The notes: generated from the sequence alone by a model not told the origin. Positions 1 through 22,762 are shown, counted from the first letter of the stretch. The stretch: DNA of 52,578 nucleotides from Candidatus Eiseniibacteriota bacterium (GCA_043810925.1 JBDRNT010000099.1:1-52578); one strand, 5' to 3'. A program made the numbers and translations.

Positions 1-684
1 TCGAAGAAGCTATCGATGGCCCAGGTCTCACCACCATTGGGTGCCGTCACCGTGACCGCGGGGTCGGTGCCGTCGACAACCGCGAAGTCGGCATCGCTTA
101 TGTCCTCACCGTCGTTGGCTGCCCCATCGTATGCGATCACCTTGACCCGTGCCTGGGTGGTCGGTGCAACATCGACCAGCCATGGGAATATGCCGTCGTT
201 CACCTCGCCTGTGGCAATCGTATGAGGATAGGTCGCACCACCATCACTTGAAAGCAGGATGTCTATTGATGTGACACCCACGTTGTCGGTGGCAACCCAC
301 GTGATATCAAAGAAGCTATCGATGGCCCACGTCTCACCACCATTGGGTGCCGTCACCGTGACCACAGGATCGGTGCCATCGACAACCGCGAAGTCGGCAT
401 CGCTTATGTCCTCACCGTCGTTGGCTGCCCCATCGTATGCGATCACCTTGACCCGTGCCTGGGTGGTCGGTGCAACATCGACCAGCCATGGGAATACGCC
501 GTCGTTCACCTCGCCGGTGGCGATCGTATGAGGATAGGTCGCACCACCATCACTTGAAAGCAGGATGTCGATTGATGTGACACCCACATTGTCGGTGGCA
601 ACCCACGTAATGTCAAAGAAGCTATCGACGGCCCAGGTCTCACCACCATTGGGTGCCGTCACCGTGACCACAGGATCCTCGGTA
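1..684 (-). repeat. 306-bp (102-aa) tandem repeat, at least 2.2 copies, PNGGETW Ig-like module
   Basis: gctatcgaYggccc recurs at 9, 315 and 621 (period 306); units are near-identical: DPxVTVTAPNGGETWAxDSFFDITWVATDNVGVTSIDILLSSDGGATYPHTIATGE. Confidence 0.95.
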
Positions 685-2447
685 TCGGGTCCACCTGTTC
701 CCAGCGGCGCCGATGAAACAAGCGAGTAGTCCTGAGGACTTGCGAGCGTACCCTTGTGAGTTACTGACACCAGGTACGTTCCGGCGGGAGGGGACGCAAG
801 ATAGATCTGTTCAGAGTTATCTCTGATGTTGTCTCCGGTAGATGCGGCATATGCGGGATTGGATGGATCCAGCACGTAGGGCTCATATTCAGTAGAGGTC
901 CCAATGTGTTCCAGGCGCACATCCAGGTCATTGACAAGCATCAGTGTCGTAGGATTAAGCGATGGTGATGGAGGAGTCCCCGGAGGATCGGTCCAAGCCA
1001 ATGAGATCCGGACCGGCGAAAGACCATCCAGATCGATGTAGTATTCGTCGGTCTCGCTATTCGCCAGATCTTCCTCGAGAATATGGCCAGGCTCGGTTGA
1101 GTCCAGTTCAATGAGTTCCGCCGCGTGCAGGGTATTCATCAGCCCCCAGCCATTCATGTAATCGGGTCCGGGATAAGGACCTGCCTCGTCGGCCGTCTGA
1201 ATCAGTACAGCCTTCATGGTCGCGGACAGTGGAGTTGTCCCGGTATGGGTAGCCTCATAGTGTCTTACAAGCAGGTTTAGCGAGCCGGAGAGATTGGGCG
1301 AGCTCATCGACGTCCCGCTATAGGTGGCGTAATTCGAAGTGCCCGTGTTTGTGCACGAGTACAAGGATACGCCGTTCGCGACGATATCCGGCTTTATCCT
1401 TCCGTCATCGGTCGGTCCCCAAGCGCTGAACGAACTCATAACTACATCTGATGAGTCCGTCCAGCCGCCGGTAATGTCGTTGACTGCACCCACCGAGAGT
1501 ATGTTCTTGGCCGTCCCGTTCCAGGATACACAATCATATCCATCACTCCCGCCGTCGGGGTCGCGGGTGTCGGTGCTCCACGTCCAACCACCGTCCCAAA
1601 CGTAATGGCCGCCGCCCGCACCGGGACCGTAGTCATTCCGGTCATTACCCGCAGACTTGCAGATCGTGTAGTATGGTGCGTCATAGGCTATCTGATCCCA
1701 GGCCTCGGCCTCGGGGCTGTAAAAGCCGAACCCGTAGTCCTCGACCGTGCTGACCGATATATCGCCATACCAGTACCAGGAGCCGTTGTAATACCAGCCG
1801 GTGCCGTAACCGTAGGAGTGGTTTGATACGTTCATGCCTGCGGCAGCGGCTGAGGCCATCTCGGAGTCATCGTTGGTCCACTCATAGGCTGCCAGGGTCC
1901 CCTGGTACGACATGCCTTTGGCATTACCAACTACACCCTCGCCTATCATGGTACCTGCAACATGAGTTGAGTGATAGTGAGTGCCGCTCGGGCTATCCAT
2001 CTGGGTGACACGCCCGGTGAACTCCTGATGCGTGGTCAGGACACCCCCACCGTCCCACACCGCAAGCTCCCCCAGCGTGGTCCCCGAACCTGTGAGTGAG
2101 AACCCGCCACTTCCGCCCGGCCACACATCGTCGGTGCTGATGGTCCTCGCTGCATTGATGTTTTCGAGGATGTAGACTACGGGAAGTCCTCGCTCATTTA
2201 TGTACATCAACTGGGCATCGGGATCGGCATTGAGCTGCTGCTGGGCCGGCTCGTCACTTTGGAGCAGTTCATAGTATAGCGCCGGACGCCTTGCTTCCAG
2301 GCGCTCCTCCAGCATGCGGCTCAGGCTCTCGAGCTCAGCCTGCTTTGTGACCGGTGCCGCATTCAGGGTACTGCCGACGCCGATCAACATCAGAAGCGCC
2401 AATGAGCCGATAACCGACCAAAGCACAAACGTCTTCCCGGTTTTCAT
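1..2447 (-). CDS. Secreted S8 (subtilisin-like) serine peptidase with C-terminal tandem Ig-like repeats; 3' end runs off the window
   Basis: Not in the ORF track (no stop in window). Manual translation from ATG 2447 (SD GAGGAGG): signal peptide MKTGKTFVLWSVIGSLALLML, triad motifs VWDGG, HSTHVAGT, SGTSMSSP, oxyanion SAGN, and GPTDDGRIKPD. Confidence 0.93.
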   Translation of the reverse strand, partial: MKTGKTFVLWSVIGSLALLMLIGVGSTLNAAPVTKQAELESLSRMLEERLEARRPALYYELLQSDEPAQQQLNADPDAQLMYINERGLPVVYILENINAARTISTDDVWPGGSGGFSLTGSGTTLGELAVWDGGGVLTTHQEFTGRVTQMDSPSGTHYHSTHVAGTMIGEGVVGNAKGMSYQGTLAAYEWTNDDSEMASAAAAGMNVSNHSYGYGTGWYYNGSWYWYGDISVSTVEDYGFGFYSPEAEAWDQIAYDAPYYTICKSAGNDRNDYGPGAGGGHYVWDGGWTWSTDTRDPDGGSDGYDCVSWNGTAKNILSVGAVNDITGGWTDSSDVVMSSFSAWGPTDDGRIKPDIVANGVSLYSCTNTGTSNYATYSGTSMSSPNLSGSLNLLVRHYEATHTGTTPLSATMKAVLIQTADEAGPYPGPDYMNGWGLMNTLHAAELIELDSTEPGHILEEDLANSETDEYYIDLDGLSPVRISLAWTDPPGTPPSPSLNPTTLMLVNDLDVRLEHIGTSTEYEPYVLDPSNPAYAASTGDNIRDNSEQIYLASPPAGTYLVSVTHKGTLASPQDYSLVSSAPLGTGGPDTEDPVVTVTAPNGGETWAVDSFFDITWVATDNVGVTSIDILLSSDGGATYPHTIATGEVNDGVFPWLVDVAPTTQARVKVIAYDGAANDGEDISDADFAVVDGTDPVVTVTAPNGGETWAIDSFFDITWVATDNVGVTSIDILLSSDGGATYPHTIATGEVNDGIFPWLVDVAPTTQARVKVIAYDGAANDGEDISDADFAVVDGTDPAVTVTAPNGGETWAIDSFF

Positions 2448-2586
2448 GCTTGCCTCCTCAAATCGTGACATCTCCCATGCTTGCTGGCCAGAGGACATAA
2501 GTTGGCCCTGGGAAACAGAGCCCCGGCATTCTGACTGCAAGGCTGTTCTTAGACTTCATGTCGCCTGTTGTGATAATGGCCTGTCT

Positions 2587-2595: not shown

Positions 2596-2827
2596 CATCA
2601 AGTCACTATATACCACAAGGATTTAACAGTGCCGAAGCTCCGGGGTCAAGGACGTGAATTCTCGATGCCGGCGGGTACGGCCGCTCGCCTATGGCCTACC
2701 GCGAGCATGGTCAACATGATAGCGAAACAGCAAATCACGATCTCCCTTCTAACACACAGCACTCCCGGAGAGGAATAAGGCTTTGAAGGCGAGGGTGGAC
2801 TAGGTTATGCTAAGAGCGGGAGGGGAG

Positions 2828-3955
2828 ATGCTCAGGACCAACATAAGGCTCTTCAGGGTATTCGGAATTCCTATTGAGGTCAATATCTCGTGGTTCATCA
2901 TCTTCGCCCTCGTATCCTGGAGCCTGGTCTCACTCTACTTCCCGACAAGGTACCCTGATCTGTCCGTTGCCTCTCACTGGGGCATGGGGCTCGTTGCGGC
3001 TCTGATGCTGTTTGCCTCTGTGATTCTCCACGAGCTGGGCCATTCGTATATGGCCAAGACCCACGGGGTCCCAATCAAACGCATAACGCTCTTTCTCTTC
3101 GGAGGTGTCTCCCAGCTTTCGAAAGAGTCCTCGGATCCAATTACTGAGATTAAGATAGCGATCGCGGGTCCCGGTGTGAGCTATGTACTCATGGTCGTCT
3201 TCTTCGGTCTCTACTTGGCGGCATCGCGGGGTAATACGCCGCAGAGCGTTGCTCCGGTTCTGAAGTACCTGGCATACGTCAATGGTATCCTCGGTACCTT
3301 CAATCTGATCCCCGGCTTTCCCCTCGATGGTGGGCGGTTGCTGAGGGCCGTAATATGGAGGCTGACGGGTGATCTCCGGCGCTCGACCTACATAGCCACG
3401 AGAGTGGGGGGCATCATCGGGATAGGCTTCATCGCTATAGGTTTTCTCTCGGTCTTCAGAGGCCTCTTCATCTTCGGTCTCTGGATGGTGATGATCGGCT
3501 TCTTCCTGAGACAGGCGGCTGAGGCGAGTTACGTCCAGGTTGTCGTGAGCAGCGCCCTCAAGGGCGTCAAGGTAGGCGACATCATGAAGACCGACGTTGT
3601 CACCGTCTCTCCCGAGCTCACGATTCAGGATCTGGTTGATTCCTACTTCTTCAAGTATCACTACGACTCGTTTCCTGTCAGTCATGAGGGAGACCTGCGG
3701 GGTCTTGTAAGTCTTAACGATCTTAAGAATCTTCCGAGGGAGCGCTGGCGGGATACCTACGTACGTGACGTGATGCAGACGGATCTCTCAACCCTGAGTG
3801 TTGGGAAGGATGAGGATGTGGCACTTGTCCTGCGACGTGCCGTCAGAGATCAGACGGGTACGCATCCAGTGGTTGAAGCAAACCAGCTTGTCGGTATCAT
3901 AACTCGAAGGGACATCATGGAAGCCCTGAGGGTGTTTTCAGATCTCGGTCACTGA
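2828..3955 (+). CDS. Site-2 protease (M50 zinc metalloprotease) with CBS pair
   Basis: HELGH and NLIPGFPLDGG motifs, several TM segments, C-terminal CBS domains; start taken at ATG 2828 after GGGGAG. Confidence 0.93.
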   Translation: MLRTNIRLFRVFGIPIEVNISWFIIFALVSWSLVSLYFPTRYPDLSVASHWGMGLVAALMLFASVILHELGHSYMAKTHGVPIKRITLFLFGGVSQLSKESSDPITEIKIAIAGPGVSYVLMVVFFGLYLAASRGNTPQSVAPVLKYLAYVNGILGTFNLIPGFPLDGGRLLRAVIWRLTGDLRRSTYIATRVGGIIGIGFIAIGFLSVFRGLFIFGLWMVMIGFFLRQAAEASYVQVVVSSALKGVKVGDIMKTDVVTVSPELTIQDLVDSYFFKYHYDSFPVSHEGDLRGLVSLNDLKNLPRERWRDTYVRDVMQTDLSTLSVGKDEDVALVLRRAVRDQTGTHPVVEANQLVGIITRRDIMEALRVFSDLGH

Positions 3956-4579
3956 TTACTGCTTGATATCAAGCCCGATCGTCCCGACTTCTTCAATCTC
4001 AATCCTGAAGGACCCGGCCTTGAGCGGCGGGAAGGTTACTTTGCCCTTATGCGAGTACGTGGTCTTACACGCATCCGGTGAATACAACTTGGTCTTAATA
4101 CCATCGGGCCTGGTCGATGAGGCTTCCTCAACGAGTGTGAGTGTCGGTTTAAGCGTGTCCTCAGCCGGAGCCAATTCCACTGTCACAAGATAGCCCGCAA
4201 GCGACTTGGATATCCTCGGAGCAAGAGCACCGTGTTTCCGGCCTCTTACCGCAACGGTGGAAGGCTGCCGGGGCAACAGGAGATTTCCCGTTGATTTGAG
4301 TATGCGGCAGATACCGTTTCTTAAGATGACATTTATATCGAATCTCTCCTCGGTCCGGGTATGCATCGCGATTATGCTCTCCGCCCTCGCCATGGCTGCC
4401 GCGCTCGGTAGGGCTAGGCTTCCGGGCTTAACATCTATGAGTTGCTTCAATTCGGCGACGTTATGGAGGCAGAGACCGCATCTTGAGAGGTGAGCCTCGA
4501 TGCTCTTACGAATCGAGGCCGTTACCAGACCATCCACATAAGAGGTGATCTCATTTTCTGTCAGGCATTTTTCAGTCAT
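3956..4579 (-). CDS. zf-HC2 (ZAS) anti-sigma factor-like protein without a transmembrane segment
   Basis: HLSRCGLC (HxxxCxxC) N-terminal motif; directly downstream of an ECF sigma; beta-rich C-terminus. Start could be 4597. Confidence 0.8.
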   Translation of the reverse strand: MTEKCLTENEITSYVDGLVTASIRKSIEAHLSRCGLCLHNVAELKQLIDVKPGSLALPSAAAMARAESIIAMHTRTEERFDINVILRNGICRILKSTGNLLLPRQPSTVAVRGRKHGALAPRISKSLAGYLVTVELAPAEDTLKPTLTLVEEASSTRPDGIKTKLYSPDACKTTYSHKGKVTFPPLKAGSFRIEIEEVGTIGLDIKQ

Positions 4580-4604
4580 CTCTTCACCCTTATACATATG
4601 ACGC

Positions 4605-5186
4605 CTATGGGTTCCTTTTTCGGACCATGATTTTGAGTTTTTTCATGGCCCTCGACTTCCTTGCGGAAACGGAATCGACCGTTATGCTCATCAACTTTGC
4701 TATCTCCCGCTCTTTCATGCCCTCAATGTAATACAGGTTCACGATCAACCTGTCCTTGTCCGGGAGCATATCAAGTGCTTCGTTGAGCGTCATCTCGACT
4801 TCGATATCATGCTCGAGGTCGAGGTCCTGTGCTATGACCCGTTCAAGTTCGTCTTCGCCGTTATCGATCGGGGTACTCAGCGATATCGTCGGTCTTCGTT
4901 TCTTACGCCGGAGATAATCATATGTCCTGTTCCTGGCAACGCTCACCAGCCAGGTCGAGACCTTCGACTTCCAGCTGAACTTTCTTAAGGCGGCACAGTC
5001 ATTGATCAGGAGCTTCTCGATTACGTCTGCGAAGATGTCCTCGGCGATCTCGGGCTCATGTATGGAAAACTTTGCCAGGAGACCTGCCACGGATCCGTAG
5101 ACCAACGGCCCGAATGACTTGAGGAACTGCCGCCAGGCTCTGTTGTCTTTGGCAATGCACGCCTGTACGAGTTGTTTATCATCCAT
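4605..5186 (-). CDS. ECF RNA polymerase sigma-70 factor
   Basis: Region 2 (AEDIF...STWLVSVARNRTYDYLRR) and region 4 (LPDKDR...EGMKEREIAKLM...VSARKSRA). Confidence 0.92.
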   Translation of the reverse strand: MDDKQLVQACIAKDNRAWRQFLKSFGPLVYGSVAGLLAKFSIHEPEIAEDIFADVIEKLLINDCAALRKFSWKSKVSTWLVSVARNRTYDYLRRKKRRPTISLSTPIDNGEDELERVIAQDLDLEHDIEVEMTLNEALDMLPDKDRLIVNLYYIEGMKEREIAKLMSITVDSVSARKSRAMKKLKIMVRKRNP

Positions 5187-5191
5187 ATCAG

Positions 5192-5830
5192 TTAATTAAG
5201 CGAAAGCAAGACAGTGATTATGACAGACTGGATCATGGTTAATAGGACGTCGTTTCCGGGTTCTTTCTTTTGCGCTTCCTGCTCTCTCAGTATGATCTCA
5301 AGGTTATTTGCAAGAGACTGGCCGCCACCATGGATCGTCCGAACCACGTTGCCTTCTCCATCCAGCAGTGCCATCGCGGGCAGGACCTTTTGATTGAAGA
5401 GTGCTTCATAGGCCCGGCCTTCGGGGTCGATATAGACGGGTATCTCAAGGTGGAGCGCCAGAACATAAGTCCTGACGGCCTCGGGGTCGCCTATGAACAG
5501 GCATACAGGCCGGATCTTTCTGGCTTCGACTCTTCCGGCCTTGCTGTCGAAGTACACGGCGCCCTCCCTGCATGTGATCAGGCCGGGATCGCCCAGAAAA
5601 ATGAGGGTTCTGCGTCCGTTGCAGATGCTCTTGAGGGTGTGGGACATGTCCCACAAGTCGGTGACAGCGGTGTCGGGGCCGCCGTAGCACATCTGCCAGG
5701 AAGCAACCGCGATGAGCACAATCGAAACGCACAACCCCAAATAGGCGACAGACGGAGCTACTCTATCTTTTCCAGGTAGGCCTGAATGACTGCTCTGGGA
5801 GTTTCCTTGACCTCTACCCATGCTTCCCAT
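5192..5830 (-). CDS. Exported/membrane thioredoxin-fold (redoxin-like) protein with a single active-site-position Cys
   Basis: N-terminal hydrophobic segment; PVYIDPEG...LPAMALLDGEGNVVRTIHG resembles the TlpA/Prx C-terminal half; LITC instead of CxxC. True start probably later (TTG 5740). Confidence 0.6.
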   Translation of the reverse strand: MGSMGRGQGNSQSSHSGLPGKDRVAPSVAYLGLCVSIVLIAVASWQMCYGGPDTAVTDLWDMSHTLKSICNGRRTLIFLGDPGLITCREGAVYFDSKAGRVEARKIRPVCLFIGDPEAVRTYVLALHLEIPVYIDPEGRAYEALFNQKVLPAMALLDGEGNVVRTIHGGGQSLANNLEIILREQEAQKKEPGNDVLLTMIQSVIITVLLSLN

Positions 5831-7164
5831 TGCTTGTATCCCTGCTTCTCGATTGTGACTCGATGGTCACCAACCGTGACCTCGGCAGTAAATGGTGTCA
5901 TACCGACCTCGGTCCCGTCAATCAGTATCGTTGCATCCTCAGGTGTGGATTCAAGAAGAAGATAGCCCAGAATGACCTGATCCTGAATTCCGGGTTCATG
6001 CCTGTGCGTCTCAGTCGGGAAGAGAATAAAGGTCACGAGGATCAGCAGGGCACAGAAAGCGGCAAGACGCGAGCCCCGCCCGGCAATGGCGCGTGAGGCT
6101 TTGCCGCTGGGGATAAGGGTAAGCTGCGGGTCACCGTAGAGTGTATACGCCGCCCAGGTCGGATCGTGCGTACCGAAAGCATGGGCGACATCCAATCTTG
6201 CTTTCCTCAGAGCGTGACCGAATGTCTCGTTCCTGAGAAGATATTCATAAAGACGGGAAGCAAGAAGCGTGGCGGACTTGCTTCTCAGGTCCCAGAGTGA
6301 GGCCACGCACGCTTTTGTACCTCTACGCAACAGGGTCTCAATGAGGCCAAGGGAGCCCCTCCATGCCTCTCTTGAAGCTGCTGCGCACATGTTGAAGAAG
6401 GCAATAGTCGGGGGATCCTGGAGCCCCCGGAGTGCCATGCCGCTCAAGACGTCTCCATTTTTAAGCCTTATGCCTGTGTGACCTTCGTCCGCAGAGACTT
6501 CACCGTGCCCGCTGAAGTGGAAGACTGTAGATCCGGGCAGAGCCGAGAGGATAAACTTCATGTCCACCTCGCTGCCGGTGGCGATCCTCAGGGAAAACTC
6601 CTTGCTCTGTTTCAGCACACCCTTTATTGCATCGATCTCCTCTTCGACGTCCCGGCTTATCGACGGATCCTCCGATGGATCGCCAAGCACAACGACCCGG
6701 TAGGGTGGCGCTTTCTCAGCGTCCTTGGGTGCCTGGGCGTCCTCAGTGTAAATCGCCCTTGCCATGGCGAACCTGTGCGAAAGAAATTCCTCGCCGTCGT
6801 AGAGCATCTCGAAGGGAACGTAGGCCAGGGCCCCGTCAATCTTAAAGAGGAGATAGGTGTCTTCATCAGGCACAAGACTCTTGAGGTGGTCGCACTCATG
6901 CCTCAGTATCTCCTGAAAGAGCGCAAGCCCGAGGGATCGCAGCCGTTCGTCGGTATCCTGCCGCTGCTCCGCTGCTTCTTTCTCGGTCCCGGGCCGCGAC
7001 AGCGCATCTTCCACCAGCTCGTCAAGGTCGCGCGAGATAGCTTCGACGGTGGCTTCATCCGACAGCCATCGTCTTACGACTGGCGAGACTCCGGTGTGGT
7101 AGTCTATGCTGACCGCGAGTTTTCCACCGGACACTATGGTGATCTGGATCTCAACAGGTTTCAT
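5758..7164 (-). CDS. Membrane-anchored CHAT (caspase-like) protease with C-terminal PEGA domain
   Basis: VPFEML, VFHFSGHG (His), FFNMC (Cys), VASLWDL, WAAYTLYGDP; TM segment then STPEDATILIDG...G.H.VTIEKQGY (PEGA). Start ATG 7164 lies downstream of the predicted promoter. Confidence 0.9.
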   Translation of the reverse strand: MKPVEIQITIVSGGKLAVSIDYHTGVSPVVRRWLSDEATVEAISRDLDELVEDALSRPGTEKEAAEQRQDTDERLRSLGLALFQEILRHECDHLKSLVPDEDTYLLFKIDGALAYVPFEMLYDGEEFLSHRFAMARAIYTEDAQAPKDAEKAPPYRVVVLGDPSEDPSISRDVEEEIDAIKGVLKQSKEFSLRIATGSEVDMKFILSALPGSTVFHFSGHGEVSADEGHTGIRLKNGDVLSGMALRGLQDPPTIAFFNMCAAASREAWRGSLGLIETLLRRGTKACVASLWDLRSKSATLLASRLYEYLLRNETFGHALRKARLDVAHAFGTHDPTWAAYTLYGDPQLTLIPSGKASRAIAGRGSRLAAFCALLILVTFILFPTETHRHEPGIQDQVILGYLLLESTPEDATILIDGTEVGMTPFTAEVTVGDHRVTIEKQGYKQWEAWVEVKETPRAVIQAYLEKIE

Positions 7165-7180
7165 GCTTGCCTCTCTTAGC

Positions 7181-7209
7181 ATTGTATTGGATTGGCGGAT
7201 GTGTTTCAA
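7181..7209 (-). promoter_or_regulatory. Sigma-70 promoter of the CHAT/ECF operon
   Basis: TTGAAA-N17-TACAAT on the minus strand, 17 nt before ATG 7164. Confidence 0.65.
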
Positions 7210-7287: not shown

Positions 7288-8088
7288 TTGAGCCAGACAG
7301 TTTATCATAGATACACCCGGTCAGTGGTTCCCTCCACCACGAGGGTGGTGCGCTGGCTTCTCATCTTTAATGTCGCGATCTTTGTCCTTCAGCATGTCTT
7401 CCTCAATCGGTATCTGAATGTTCTGGGTCTTGTTCCATCTGCTTTCCTGGGCAGGGGCTTCATCTGGCAGATCGTAACCTACATGTTCTTTCACGGAAGC
7501 GTCCTGCACATTCTTTTCAATATGCTCTTTCTATGGATGATGGGCTCGGAGATCGAGAGGCTCTGGGGAGGCCGGGAGTTCCTGAAGTACTACCTGATCA
7601 CGGGTGGTGGTGCCGGACTGGTGAACGTGCTTGTTCAACCGAGATCGTCGATCCCGACGATCGGTGCGTCGGGGGCAATCTTCGGTTTGATAATTGCGTT
7701 CGCCATGGCATTTCCGGATAGAGAGATTCTGCTGTACTTCCTGATCAGAATAAAGGCGAAGTACTTTGCCGTTCTTGTCGGTGTGCTCGAGTTGGTCGCG
7801 CTCTTCCTGATGCCCAGTGCCCCGATCGCAAGATTCGCCCACCTTGGGGGCCTGTTAGTCGGGTTTGTGTACCTGAGGCGTACACACCTGGGGCAGCCGG
7901 TTAAGAGGAAGATTTCGCAGTGGCATCAGGAAGCTTCGGTGCTTGCACACAAACGAGAAGCGGAGGAGCAAGCGAAGAGAGAGGCTGAGGTTGACAGGAT
8001 CCTTGATAAGATAAACAAGCAAGGCATTTCCTCCCTGTCGGATATAGAGAGACAGTTTCTCGAAAGCCAGAGCGGGAAGAGGTCTTGA
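7288..8088 (+). CDS. Rhomboid family intramembrane serine protease
   Basis: HILFNM, GASGA and AHLGG motifs; C-terminal VDRILDKI...G..SLS tail. Confidence 0.93.
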   Translation: MSQTVYHRYTRSVVPSTTRVVRWLLIFNVAIFVLQHVFLNRYLNVLGLVPSAFLGRGFIWQIVTYMFFHGSVLHILFNMLFLWMMGSEIERLWGGREFLKYYLITGGGAGLVNVLVQPRSSIPTIGASGAIFGLIIAFAMAFPDREILLYFLIRIKAKYFAVLVGVLELVALFLMPSAPIARFAHLGGLLVGFVYLRRTHLGQPVKRKISQWHQEASVLAHKREAEEQAKREAEVDRILDKINKQGISSLSDIERQFLESQSGKRS

Positions 8089-21569: not shown

Positions 21570-21598
21570 TAAACCATTCAGCCATCGCGTGTGTCTAA
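21570..21598 (+). promoter_or_regulatory. Possible ECF-type autoregulatory promoter
   Basis: TAAACC-N17-GTCTAA just upstream of the ECF sigma gene; resembles AAC/GTC ECF promoters. Confidence 0.35.
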
Positions 21599-21623
21599 GT
21601 CTATGGAAGGCCAAAAGGGCAAT

Positions 21624-22151
21624 ATGAGTGATCTTGGCAAGCGATTGGCAAGTGGTGACGAGGATGCCTTCGACGAGACGGTTGAGCTCTACTCCAGGAA
21701 GGTCTACGGTCTGTGCTATCGCATCCTGCGGGATCAGGGAGAGGCGGAGGATATGACCCAGGAGGTGTTTGTGAGGGTGTACACGAAGCATAAGACATTC
21801 AAGGGTAAGTCCTCACTCTACACCTGGATCTACAGGATAGCTCTTAACATGTGTTTTTCCCATCTGAAGAAGCGAAGGGCCCCGACTGTACCTTTCGAAG
21901 AGGTGGAGGGGGTGCTCACAACCAGAGCGGACGATAGCGTCGACCACCGCGAGCTCGAGCGGCTCGTGGCGGGCGCCGTAGGTCAGCTTCCTCCCAAGCA
22001 GAGGGCGGTTTTCACCATGAGGTTTTATGACAAGATGACCTTCAAGGAAATATCCGAGGCCGTGGGAACATCGGTGGGCGGTGCGAAGGCCAACCATCAC
22101 TTTGCCGTTGAACGTCTGAGAGAGATCTTAAAGGAGGCTGATCCGAAGTGA
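21624..22151 (+). CDS. ECF RNA polymerase sigma factor (RpoE/SigW-like)
   Basis: AEDMTQEVF, YTWIYRIALN, LPPKQRAVF...TFKEIS; start 21624 or 21603. Confidence 0.93.
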   Translation: MSDLGKRLASGDEDAFDETVELYSRKVYGLCYRILRDQGEAEDMTQEVFVRVYTKHKTFKGKSSLYTWIYRIALNMCFSHLKKRRAPTVPFEEVEGVLTTRADDSVDHRELERLVAGAVGQLPPKQRAVFTMRFYDKMTFKEISEAVGTSVGGAKANHHFAVERLREILKEADPK

Positions 22152-22762
22152 GCCGGGAGTGTGACCATAAACATGAGGAACTGATCGACTTCGTGGAGGG
22201 AGATCTGGCTGCGGAGCGTGCCGATGAGATCGATGCTCATCTTAAAGTCTGCAAGGAATGTGCGGCGTATGTCGAGTCGATCAAGCGGACATTCTCGGTA
22301 CTTACGGATGACACCATACCGGAGCCACCGCCGGGATACTGGGCGTACCTCCCACAGAAGGTTAGACAGCAGGCAGGCGCCAGGCGCAGACGCCACAGAG
22401 TTCTGGTGTTTGCACCGGGGATGGCGGCACTGGCAGTCGTTCTTATGCTCATCTGGTGGGGGACACGTGCACCGGTCCCGGAGATCACGACTCTGGAGAT
22501 GATCACGGCCGAGCTGGCTACAGAGGATCTGCTTGAGTCGGTCTCCTCCAACGAGGTTTATGAGATTATGTTCGTGGATGCGGCAGCGGAAGAGATGACA
22601 TCACTGGATCAGTACTTTAACGAGACCGAAGATATCTACGATCTCATCGGTAACTTGAGTGATGCCGAAGCGGAGGCTTTCGTGGCGGAGCTTGACAATC
22701 TCATGCGTGCCGATGAGGGTACTTCTGAGGTTATGACCGATACCCCGGGGAAGGAGTGTTGA
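22148..22762 (+). CDS. zf-HC2 transmembrane anti-sigma factor
   Basis: HLKVCKEC motif, single TM helix, acidic periplasmic tail; GTGA overlap with the sigma gene. Confidence 0.85.
   Translation: MSRECDHKHEELIDFVEGDLAAERADEIDAHLKVCKECAAYVESIKRTFSVLTDDTIPEPPPGYWAYLPQKVRQQAGARRRRHRVLVFAPGMAALAVVLMLIWWGTRAPVPEITTLEMITAELATEDLLESVSSNEVYEIMFVDAAAEEMTSLDQYFNETEDIYDLIGNLSDAEAEAFVAELDNLMRADEGTSEVMTDTPGKEC

Follow-up and report, generated by a model that had tools for sequence, protein, structure and literature searches.

A 52,578-nucleotide stretch of DNA from a Candidatus Eiseniibacteriota bacterium (GCA_043810925.1, JBDRNT010000099.1:1-52578; hereafter the window) carries at positions 3956-7209 four packed minus-strand open reading frames (ORFs), encoding a CHAT-PEGA protein with a transmembrane (TM) helix, a ResA-like thioredoxin-fold protein, a sigma factor of the extracytoplasmic function (ECF) type and a zinc anti-sigma factor. 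The four are conserved together, and we regard the cassette as a real signalling unit, the PEGA plus thioredoxin-like version of a protease-gated sigma/anti-sigma kind, whose mechanism we infer from its parts and their linkage. The reading that we favor, with a little better than an even chance, is that of a transmembrane proteolytic switch of the ECF sigma factor, in which the CHAT domain would cut the soluble anti-sigma. Under this proposal the CHCC zinc domain of the anti-sigma would keep the sigma bound in the cytoplasm, and the one-pass receptor would have its PEGA domain outside, probably together with the exported ResA-like protein, and a separase/Csx29-like CHAT domain inside. A signal from the envelope, for which PEGA and perhaps also the ResA-like protein would be the sensors, would switch on the CHAT domain, in the simplest case through clustering of the receptor; CHAT would then cut the anti-sigma, most likely after an invariant arginine in a disordered loop of its β-sandwich, and the damaged anti-sigma would be lost, leaving the sigma free to act on its presumed regulon. 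As the same trio of protease, anti-sigma and sigma recurs in unrelated bacteria, this is probably an undescribed route by which envelope signals reach transcription through the cutting of an inhibitor.

The receptor-protease ORF (5758-7209) opens with TTG, but the likelier start is an ATG at 7164, which aligns with the start of its relatives. Pfam recognizes both a CHAT and a PEGA domain (Table 1), and a Kyte-Doolittle scan finds a single hydrophobic helix at residues ~362-387, between the two, so that the layout read by the first-pass annotation, namely CHAT followed by one TM helix and a terminal PEGA domain, is borne out. The same holds for its claim that the CHAT domain keeps its His and Cys: the CHAT region is invariant or nearly so across 23 family sequences, in all of which H216, H220, N258 and C260 are unchanged, the FHFSGHG and NMC motifs being present, and the H220 and C260 dyad is invariant also in 9 sequences from inside and outside the phylum. 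An AlphaFold2 (AF2) model of the CHAT-PEGA protein (predicted local distance difference test score, pLDDT, 82.4) has the PEGA β-strands at residues 399-463, and its best Foldseek matches are separase (2.3e-12), Csx29 (8eex, 8.1e-12) and DdvA (8rot, 4.6e-8), with gingipains also being retrieved. At the sequence level, a CHAT-PEGA profile run against PDB sequences recovered only spurious DARPin repeats and no match to Csx29. A word-index search gathered 53 clusters combining CHAT and PEGA at 44-85% identity, the window's own included. The CHAT part is without a signal peptide, 3-5 Arg/Lys residues precede the TM helix in 23/23 family members with fewer after it, and relatives outside the phylum have a cyclase domain fused N-terminal to CHAT (see below); on these grounds the CHAT domain is placed in the cytoplasm and PEGA outside, which agrees with the side earlier assumed for CHAT, this topology being predicted from sequence. 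The window's own genome has five further CHAT genes with frames of 1052-1184 residues, on contigs C110, C134, C157, C70 and C168 (L021-L025).

The anti-sigma ORF spans 3956-4597, with a likelier start at 4579. It had been called a zf-HC2 protein, and that Pfam match lies below the cut-off (E=0.011), but its identity as a zinc anti-sigma stands on other evidence. The ligand set C5, H30, C34 and C37 (C-x24-H-x3-C-x2-C) is invariant in 11 orthologues, and across 33 superfamily members none of the three Cys changes and the His hardly does. In profile comparisons the anti-sigma domain of RsiW is the best match (8.4e-6), followed by the N-terminal domain of DdvA (3.6e-4), ChrR (0.018) and RsrA (0.057), and no Csx30 chain in the PDB is found at E<=0.1. 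A Kyte-Doolittle scan shows no TM or other hydrophobic helix, confirming the earlier observation that this anti-sigma is not membrane-anchored. The AF2 model (pLDDT 79.9) consists of helices at residues 8-73 and β-sandwich strands at 79-206, with a low-confidence loop at 102-121 that breaks up the sandwich. Foldseek returned nothing for this model from the PDB at E<=0.001; a wide VIA-align search retrieved RsiW for the N-terminus (Z 5.8) and, for residues 128-207, generic immunoglobulin (Ig)/macroglobulin-like sandwiches, the best being the MG1 domain of E. coli alpha-2-macroglobulin (Z 8.1, root-mean-square deviation 2.4, 72 aligned residues). Assigning the sandwich to a named family was ruled out, this fold being too common. 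P0129, a relative of the anti-sigma, gives a CarboxypepD_reg match of 4.9e-5, which lies below the cut-off.

Within the loop of this protein lies an arginine, R112. In an alignment of 33 superfamily sequences that are only 14-39% identical to the first row there are just four invariant columns, namely the three Cys and this Arg (33/33). The residue before it is L, V, I, F or M in every sequence, the residue after it is G (17), S (6), N (3) or A (1) in 27/33, and Pro is common 3-5 residues upstream. That one Arg is invariant while the rest of the loop is free to vary suggests a site of recognition, and hence a candidate cut site. Arg or Lys is the preferred residue of gingipain R and of metacaspases, which are also clan CD enzymes. 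Cleavage after Arg is described for separase (PMC11506125), which is the top structural match of the CHAT-PEGA model. A complex prediction with CHAT residues 1-385 and the anti-sigma scored 0.00 and was used neither for nor against the proposal.

Within the phylum we examined 18 genomes from 3 families and 11 genera. The CHAT-PEGA gene is found in all 18, and the cassette is single-copy; the full-length anti-sigma occurs once per genome in 17/18, the single miss being a 57% complete genome (G010) whose contig ends inside the ECF gene. Other anti-sigma matches in these genomes cover only residues 3-88, i.e. the zinc domain, the β-sandwich being confined to the cassette. A scan of genome collections yielded 20 loci, among them 12 orthologues at 41-91% identity from unclassified metagenome-assembled genomes and Candidatus Eisenbacteria. 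The order CHAT, thioredoxin-like, ECF is kept in 12/12 orthologous loci, with the anti-sigma next in each of the 10 loci long enough to show it, the other two (L003 and L004) breaking off within the ECF gene. Even in the most distant family, f3, where the CHAT part is 31-33% identical, the four genes are still together, and the 16-kb f3 locus (L027) shows no rhomboid, nfi or M50 match; these three are the flanking genes of the cassette in families f1 and f2, with M50 gone in 3/10 loci reaching past the anti-sigma. The conserved linkage that the first-pass annotation had made a test of its proposal is thus present, the unit being kept in f3 without its flanks. Its presence in all 18 genomes suggests a basic role in envelope monitoring in this phylum.

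Beyond the phylum, an exhaustive profile search with the anti-sigma collected 1763 proteins under a cut-off of E<=0.001, of which 126 also pass E<=1e-10, and about 100 of the best 150 relatives align over their full length (206-250 residues, 20-39% identity). A metagenome scan with four of these relatives gave 5 loci; three were treated as one because of their identical statistics, and L031, L033 and L035 were examined. In all three distinct loci the anti-sigma relative comes after an ECF gene and before the gene of a protein composed of an N-terminal CHAT domain, a single TM helix, and either TPR or FlgO/CsgG-like plus TPR domains. We then used a sample of 401 genomes, made up of the 18 of the phylum and 383 from other Bacteria. 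Anti-sigma matches at E<=1e-8 are found in 76 of the 401, mostly with the zinc domain alone, and outside the phylum a full-length anti-sigma is present only in G379, G035, G071 and G204 (4/383). In all four an ECF gene precedes the anti-sigma and a cyclase-CHAT gene directly follows it, with the architecture Guanylate_cyc-CHAT-TM-TPR/CsgG; in G071 the contig ends ~240 codons into that gene, and the stretch present shares 47-57% identity with the cyclase region of the other genes. The stop codon of the anti-sigma and the start codon of the protease overlap in L037 and L039. A reverse search with a profile of the CHAT subfamily at E<=1e-25 hit 28/401 genomes, the 18 of the phylum and 10 others, and the top three out-of-phylum matches are G204, G035 and G379 (E about 1e-165), the other seven being weaker. 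The association of an ECF sigma with this family of anti-sigmas and this subfamily of CHAT proteins is thereby upheld beyond the lineage, in 3/3 metagenome loci and 4/4 genomes, with another gene order and other outer domains.

The class III cyclase domain of the out-of-phylum relatives (Guanylate_cyc, E 7e-21 to 7e-26) lies N-terminal to CHAT, and this fusion might indicate that the switch has a second messenger as an input or an output. Among the seven weaker matches of the reverse search, L040 of G363 was not counted as a trio, its ECF-like neighbor being weak (24.6% over 203 residues, with no Pfam sigma match at 1e-3). Another genome, G101 (L042 6313-11776), encodes side by side a zinc-ribbon-CHAT protein of 484 residues in which no TM helix is seen, an ECF sigma, a 271-residue zf-HC2 protein and a GAF histidine kinase; this locus may be a cytoplasmic variant of the trio.

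The ECF sigma of the window matches, within NCBIfam, just the general model TIGR02937; it contains Pfam Sigma70_r2 and r4_2 domains and no hydrophobic helix in a Kyte-Doolittle scan. To place it we used a tree of 25 rows, comprising the window ECF, 13 others from its own genome (one of them an antisense ORF), 3 Eisenbacteria orthologues and 8 ECFs from trios; it does not include the partial ECF of L039, the loci L032 and L034, which are duplicates, or any further Eisenbacteria orthologues. The window ECF groups with its orthologues (98/96), and this group is sister to the ECFs of L031, L033, L035, L036, L037 and L038 (97/93). The joint node of the window and trio ECFs has a support of 91/90 and excludes 8 other ECFs of the same genome; the positions of the L040 and L042 rows are not resolved. 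The ECFs of the trios thus group together, and protease, anti-sigma and sigma travel as a set.

As for the packing of the four genes, which is as tight as first described, the CHAT-PEGA and thioredoxin-like genes overlap by 73 nt, 5 nt separate the latter from the ECF gene, and 25 nt (start 4579) or 7 nt (start 4597) separate the ECF gene from the anti-sigma gene. Within the 5758-5830 overlap, the ATG of the thioredoxin-like gene falls among the codons for WEAW, a motif conserved in PEGA; instead of such a 73-nt overlap, family f2 has the thioredoxin-like gene beginning at the stop codon of the protease. As for the claim of a single sigma-70 promoter, a promoter scan found 3 sites, as against 2.2 +/- 1.5 in shuffled sequences, so that TTGAAA-17-TACAAT taken alone is not significant, but a TTGnAn-17-TAnnAT pair lies at the aligned place in 12/13 orthologous upstream regions, the exception being L004. 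Given this conservation, the operon looks to be read from a housekeeping-type promoter, which fits a switch that is thrown post-translationally. The system also appears to be independent of CRISPR, as had been proposed: no Cas family is found among the 41 window ORFs scanned with Pfam (5 small ORFs lay outside the scan), and a search for CRISPR-like direct repeats found no repeat family within 200 bp in the window. None of the PADLOC defence models matches the protease, the anti-sigma or the thioredoxin-like protein; the sigma gave a weak generic helix-turn-helix (HTH) match.

The second gene, which the first-pass annotation described as redoxin-like, proved to be so in fold and not in active site. 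Its match to Pfam AhpC-TSA_2 (E=7e-5, 23.6 bits) is below the 27-bit cut-off, but a profile of 13 sequences matches ResA at E=2e-5 over residues ~52-172 (~120 residues), and an LPA motif aligns with the LPT of ResA, so that the cis-Pro position is kept. What had been overlooked is the loss of the CxxC pair: C87, the only invariant Cys, falls opposite the second Cys of the ResA motif, and in 13/13 orthologues the first position holds Leu or some other residue. Hydrophobic segments are seen by Kyte-Doolittle at residues 23-51 (signal-like) and 193-212 (a C-terminal helix). Since the orthologues have a Sec-type signal before the ResA-like domain, and the enzyme family is an exported one, this domain is placed outside the cytoplasm, as judged from sequence. 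The PEGA domain and the ResA-like gene occur together at every phylum locus examined and in no out-of-phylum locus, which suggests that the two proteins may work as a pair.

A thioredoxin-fold gene within the operon, together with the invariant C-x24-H-x3-C-x2-C ligand set and the weak profile matches to ChrR and RsrA, might invite another explanation, in which the anti-sigma is a thiol/zinc redox switch of the RsrA/ChrR kind whose CHCC oxidation frees the sigma, with CHAT-PEGA and the ResA-like protein being co-transcribed for a separate task. Soluble zinc anti-sigmas (ZAS) acting by conformational change are indeed a known class (PMC8999054). However, the zinc site is shared with non-redox anti-sigmas such as RsiW, the best match, and the ResA-like protein is both devoid of the CxxC pair and missing from the out-of-phylum trios. 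This explanation moreover leaves the β-sandwich, the invariant loop Arg and the cross-phylum link to one CHAT subfamily without a role, and we consider it distinctly unlikely.

An even smaller likelihood attaches to the CHAT domain acting on another member of the cassette, either the sigma itself or the ResA-like protein, or holding the anti-sigma uncut as a partner-switch scaffold. The ResA-like protein would lie across the membrane from CHAT, the invariant dyad speaks against a pure scaffold, and the anti-sigma is present and co-varies in its occurrence with the protease. What lends this option its slim chance is the precedent of ECF54, which is encoded near CHAT-TPR proteins and for which proteolytic control without an anti-sigma has been proposed (PMC8999054 and PMC7826278).

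Several observations weigh against proteolysis of the anti-sigma by the receptor. The cassette is a core syntenic block of the phylum, and its 18 genomes are not independent witnesses, since the flanks are also kept in f1 and f2; the out-of-phylum support rests on 7 loci, and in five of the 10 out-of-phylum genomes of the reverse search (G127, G095, G375, G070 and G094), whose CHAT matches are weaker (E 1e-31 to 1e-61), tblastn at E<=1e-3 detects neither an ECF nor an anti-sigma within the DNA fetched. With its CHCC site complete, the anti-sigma could also work as a protease-free redox switch. A conserved basic cluster of the ResA-like protein stands before, not after, the C-terminal helix with which the protein ends (window 5192-5260), a placement that contradicts the positive-inside rule for the topology assumed here. 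Craspases, in turn, cut after Met or Leu and not after Arg (PMC11506125), for which reason a particular preference of the CHAT protease for the residue preceding the cut (P1) cannot be assumed.

A further point is that outside the phylum the protease gene comes after those of sigma and anti-sigma (7/7 loci), the usual spot of a regulated 'cargo' gene. It could accordingly be argued that sigma and anti-sigma sense alone and drive the expression of a CHAT receptor-protease acting on envelope, cell-death or defence targets. The five other large CHAT proteins of the same genome, for which no sigma link was seen although their neighbors were not examined, and the actinobacterial CHAT genes that pair with caspase genes and not with sigma factors (see below), are in keeping with such an arrangement. 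Yet in the phylum of the window the protease gene comes first, behind the conserved sigma-70-like promoter, and in L037 and L039 it is joined to the anti-sigma gene by the stop-start overlap. The anti-sigma would, in addition, have no route to an envelope signal, the PADLOC result (no defence model for three of the four proteins, and a weak, generic HTH match for the sigma) offers nothing for a defence target, and these proteins, judged by their predicted domains, combine an inner enzyme that is conserved with outer domains that vary, as receptors do. On balance the protease being cargo is an unlikely account of the locus, and we retain anti-sigma cleavage by the receptor as the preferred one.

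Extending this preferred reading to all the loci, one-pass CHAT receptor proteases, members of the caspase/separase superfamily with swappable outer domains (PEGA plus the thioredoxin-like protein, TPR, or CsgG/FlgO-like), may form a widespread modular class of signal transducers in bacteria that cuts a dedicated soluble zinc anti-sigma after the loop Arg and so frees one group of ECFs, a tentative generalization to which we would give slightly less than an even chance.

Table 1. Features of the cassette and cyclase-CHAT genes of related loci. Positions are those of the window unless a locus is named.
Feature	Position	Strand	Evidence
Receptor-protease gene, 468 residues: CHAT, one TM helix, PEGA	5758..7164	-	Pfam, relatives, AF2
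CHAT (caspase-like, clan CD) domain	6130..6942	-	Pfam E=1.3e-31
Catalytic His codon, H220 of the 468-residue protein, in FHFSGHG	6505..6507	-	
Catalytic Cys codon, C260, in FFNMC	6385..6387	-	
Single TM helix LAAFCALLILVTFILFP, Arg-rich stretch before it	6013..6066	-	Kyte-Doolittle scan
PEGA domain, predicted outside the cytoplasm	5782..5964	-	Pfam PF08308 E=1.7e-13
ResA/TlpA-like thioredoxin-fold protein, predicted exported, 212 residues	5192..5830	-	ResA profile match, hydrophobicity
Single invariant Cys codon, C87, in TCREGAV	5570..5572	-	invariant in 13 orthologues
ECF sigma, 193 residues	4605..5186	-	TIGR02937 E=3.8e-30, 104.7 bits (cut-off 42.9)
Soluble anti-sigma, 207 residues: CHCC zinc domain and β-sandwich	3956..4579	-	alignment, AF2, profile
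HxxxCxxC zinc motif H30, C34, C37	4469..4492	-	
Fourth zinc ligand C5	4565-4567	-	
Invariant loop Arg codon, R112 in AVRG, candidate cleavage site	4244..4246	-	loop 102-121
Sigma-70-like promoter TTGAAA-17-TACAAT	7181..7209	-	consensus scan, 10/12
Cyclase-CHAT gene	L036 3713-6592	-	
Cyclase-CHAT gene	L037 8462-11878	+	
Cyclase-CHAT gene	L039 1138-3384	+	
Cyclase-CHAT gene	L038 8463-9152	+	

Around the cassette, two genes for intramembrane proteases lie on the opposite strand, one encoding an M50-CBS protein of the site-2 type (window 2807-3955, +) and the other a rhomboid with a DUF6576 domain (7288-8088, +). Both were rejected as parts of the system, being missing from the distant family, and the M50 gene also from 3/10 loci; their position probably reflects synteny. 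A subtilase gene at window 3-2540 (-), open at the window start (Peptidase_S8, 2.9e-25), contains in its C-terminal part an Ig-like unit of ~90 residues repeated almost exactly at least 3 times, and is not kept beside the cassette in the 12 orthologous loci. A second, ordinary ECF gene is found at window 21591-22762 (+), where a Sigma70_r2 protein (1.6e-17) is followed by a zf-HC2 protein (4.5e-5) and a 197-residue ORF. The actinobacterial loci L013-L020 were dismissed as unrelated, having C-terminal CHAT genes and no ECF match at any locus. At L013 4585-10488, L016 3691-9924 and L019 3824-10429 the C-terminal CHAT protein is paired with a large Peptidase_C14 (caspase) protein, some with DUF7379, and no sigma factor is near these pairs; they may represent a different sort of protease cascade.

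ECF sigma factors are among the main signalling systems of bacteria, and how outside signals reach many of their groups, especially those with soluble anti-sigmas, is the question that this cassette addresses. Its parts list points to a simple answer, namely a receptor that has a caspase-like protease as its inner domain. If this is true, it would add a further general transmembrane route to ECF activation beside intramembrane proteolysis, cell-surface signalling and partner switching, and would constitute a core pathway of a whole uncultured phylum. It would also provide a compact orthogonal set of protease, anti-sigma and sigma for synthetic circuits.

The first-pass annotation was aware of no characterised system with such a layout. 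Our literature searches, which did not cover subscription journals, likewise found no description of a soluble zinc anti-sigma with a separate CHAT-TM-sensor protein, and the main text of PMC7826278 mentions neither CHAT nor PEGA, but two precedents for a CHAT-ECF connection, DdvA/DdvS and ECF54, had been missed. The actinobacterial ECF54 is described as lying near CHAT-TPR, subtilase and carboxypeptidase-regulatory-like proteins (PMC8999054; PMC7826278 supplement, citing Huang 2015). It resembles the present case in the combination of an ECF with a CHAT protein and a β-sandwich (carboxypeptidase-regulatory-like) protein at +1, with proteolysis being suggested, and differs in being described without an anti-sigma, in having a subtilase in its context and in being confined to Actinobacteria. 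Here both a CHAT gene and an anti-sigma are present, and the subtilase of the window is not conserved in the 12 loci. The second gene of the cassette has the thioredoxin fold and cis-Pro loop of ResA/TlpA and not their CxxC active site, and the anti-sigma shares with RsrA/ChrR its solubility and the HxxxCxxC motif with a further Cys ligand.

RseA/RsiW-type anti-sigmas are membrane-spanning proteins whose cleavage takes place both outside the membrane and inside it, by DegS or PrsW and then by RseP. The flow from envelope signal through anti-sigma proteolysis to ECF release would be alike in the cassette proposed here; in contrast, its anti-sigma has no TM helix that site-1 and site-2 proteases could cut, and its M50 and rhomboid neighbors are not kept in the distant family. 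DdvA of Myxococcus xanthus is a membrane-spanning anti-sigma with a periplasmic TPR-CHAT part, for which self-cleavage followed by RseP has been proposed (PMC11506125). The DdvA/DdvS pair and our cassette have in common an ECF sigma, a CHCC zinc anti-sigma domain (here predicted to bind the sigma), a CHAT domain in the same signalling unit and a signalling that is independent of CRISPR effectors. Whereas DdvA is a one-pass anti-sigma fused to TPR-CHAT, the anti-sigma of the window is soluble, and a separate, predicted cytoplasmic CHAT domain lies N-terminal to the TM helix with PEGA outside. If the proposed cleavage is true, the cassette would therefore be an easier two-protein test system for the unproven idea that the CHAT of DdvA acts on the anti-sigma.

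Of the known systems, DdvA/DdvS and Craspase come nearest to the cassette. Analogies in logic come from CRISPR-associated systems. The CalpL protease reportedly cuts the anti-sigma of its own system. CalpL, CalpT and CalpS form a tripartite effector of a soluble protease, an anti-sigma and an ECF-like sigma (bioRxiv 10.1101/2024.05.08.593097). It differs in that CalpL is a SAVED-Lon protease driven by the cyclic oligoadenylate of type III CRISPR, with no membrane receptor. In the type III-E Craspase (Csx29/Csx30/CASP-sigma), the TPR-CHAT protein Csx29 cuts Csx30 in its C-terminal part, and the N-terminal part of Csx30 binds CASP-sigma/RpoE (PMC10028731), so that, as in the cassette proposed here, a cytoplasmic CHAT protease is combined with a soluble inhibitor and an ECF-type sigma. 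The CHAT domain with a His-Cys dyad and separase-like fold is found in the window as well, as shown by Pfam, the invariant dyad and the Foldseek match to Csx29, whereas Cas7-11/gRAMP and a CRISPR array are not found there. The inhibitor is a CHCC zinc anti-sigma with a β-sandwich whose profile retrieves no Csx30 chain from the PDB at E<=0.1, although the two may be distantly related in fold, and where Craspase is activated by target RNA the cassette would be activated by a membrane receptor. Should this hold, the logic of Craspase and CalpL, in which a protease releases a sigma factor, would be an ordinary principle of chromosomal signalling and not a speciality of CRISPR systems.

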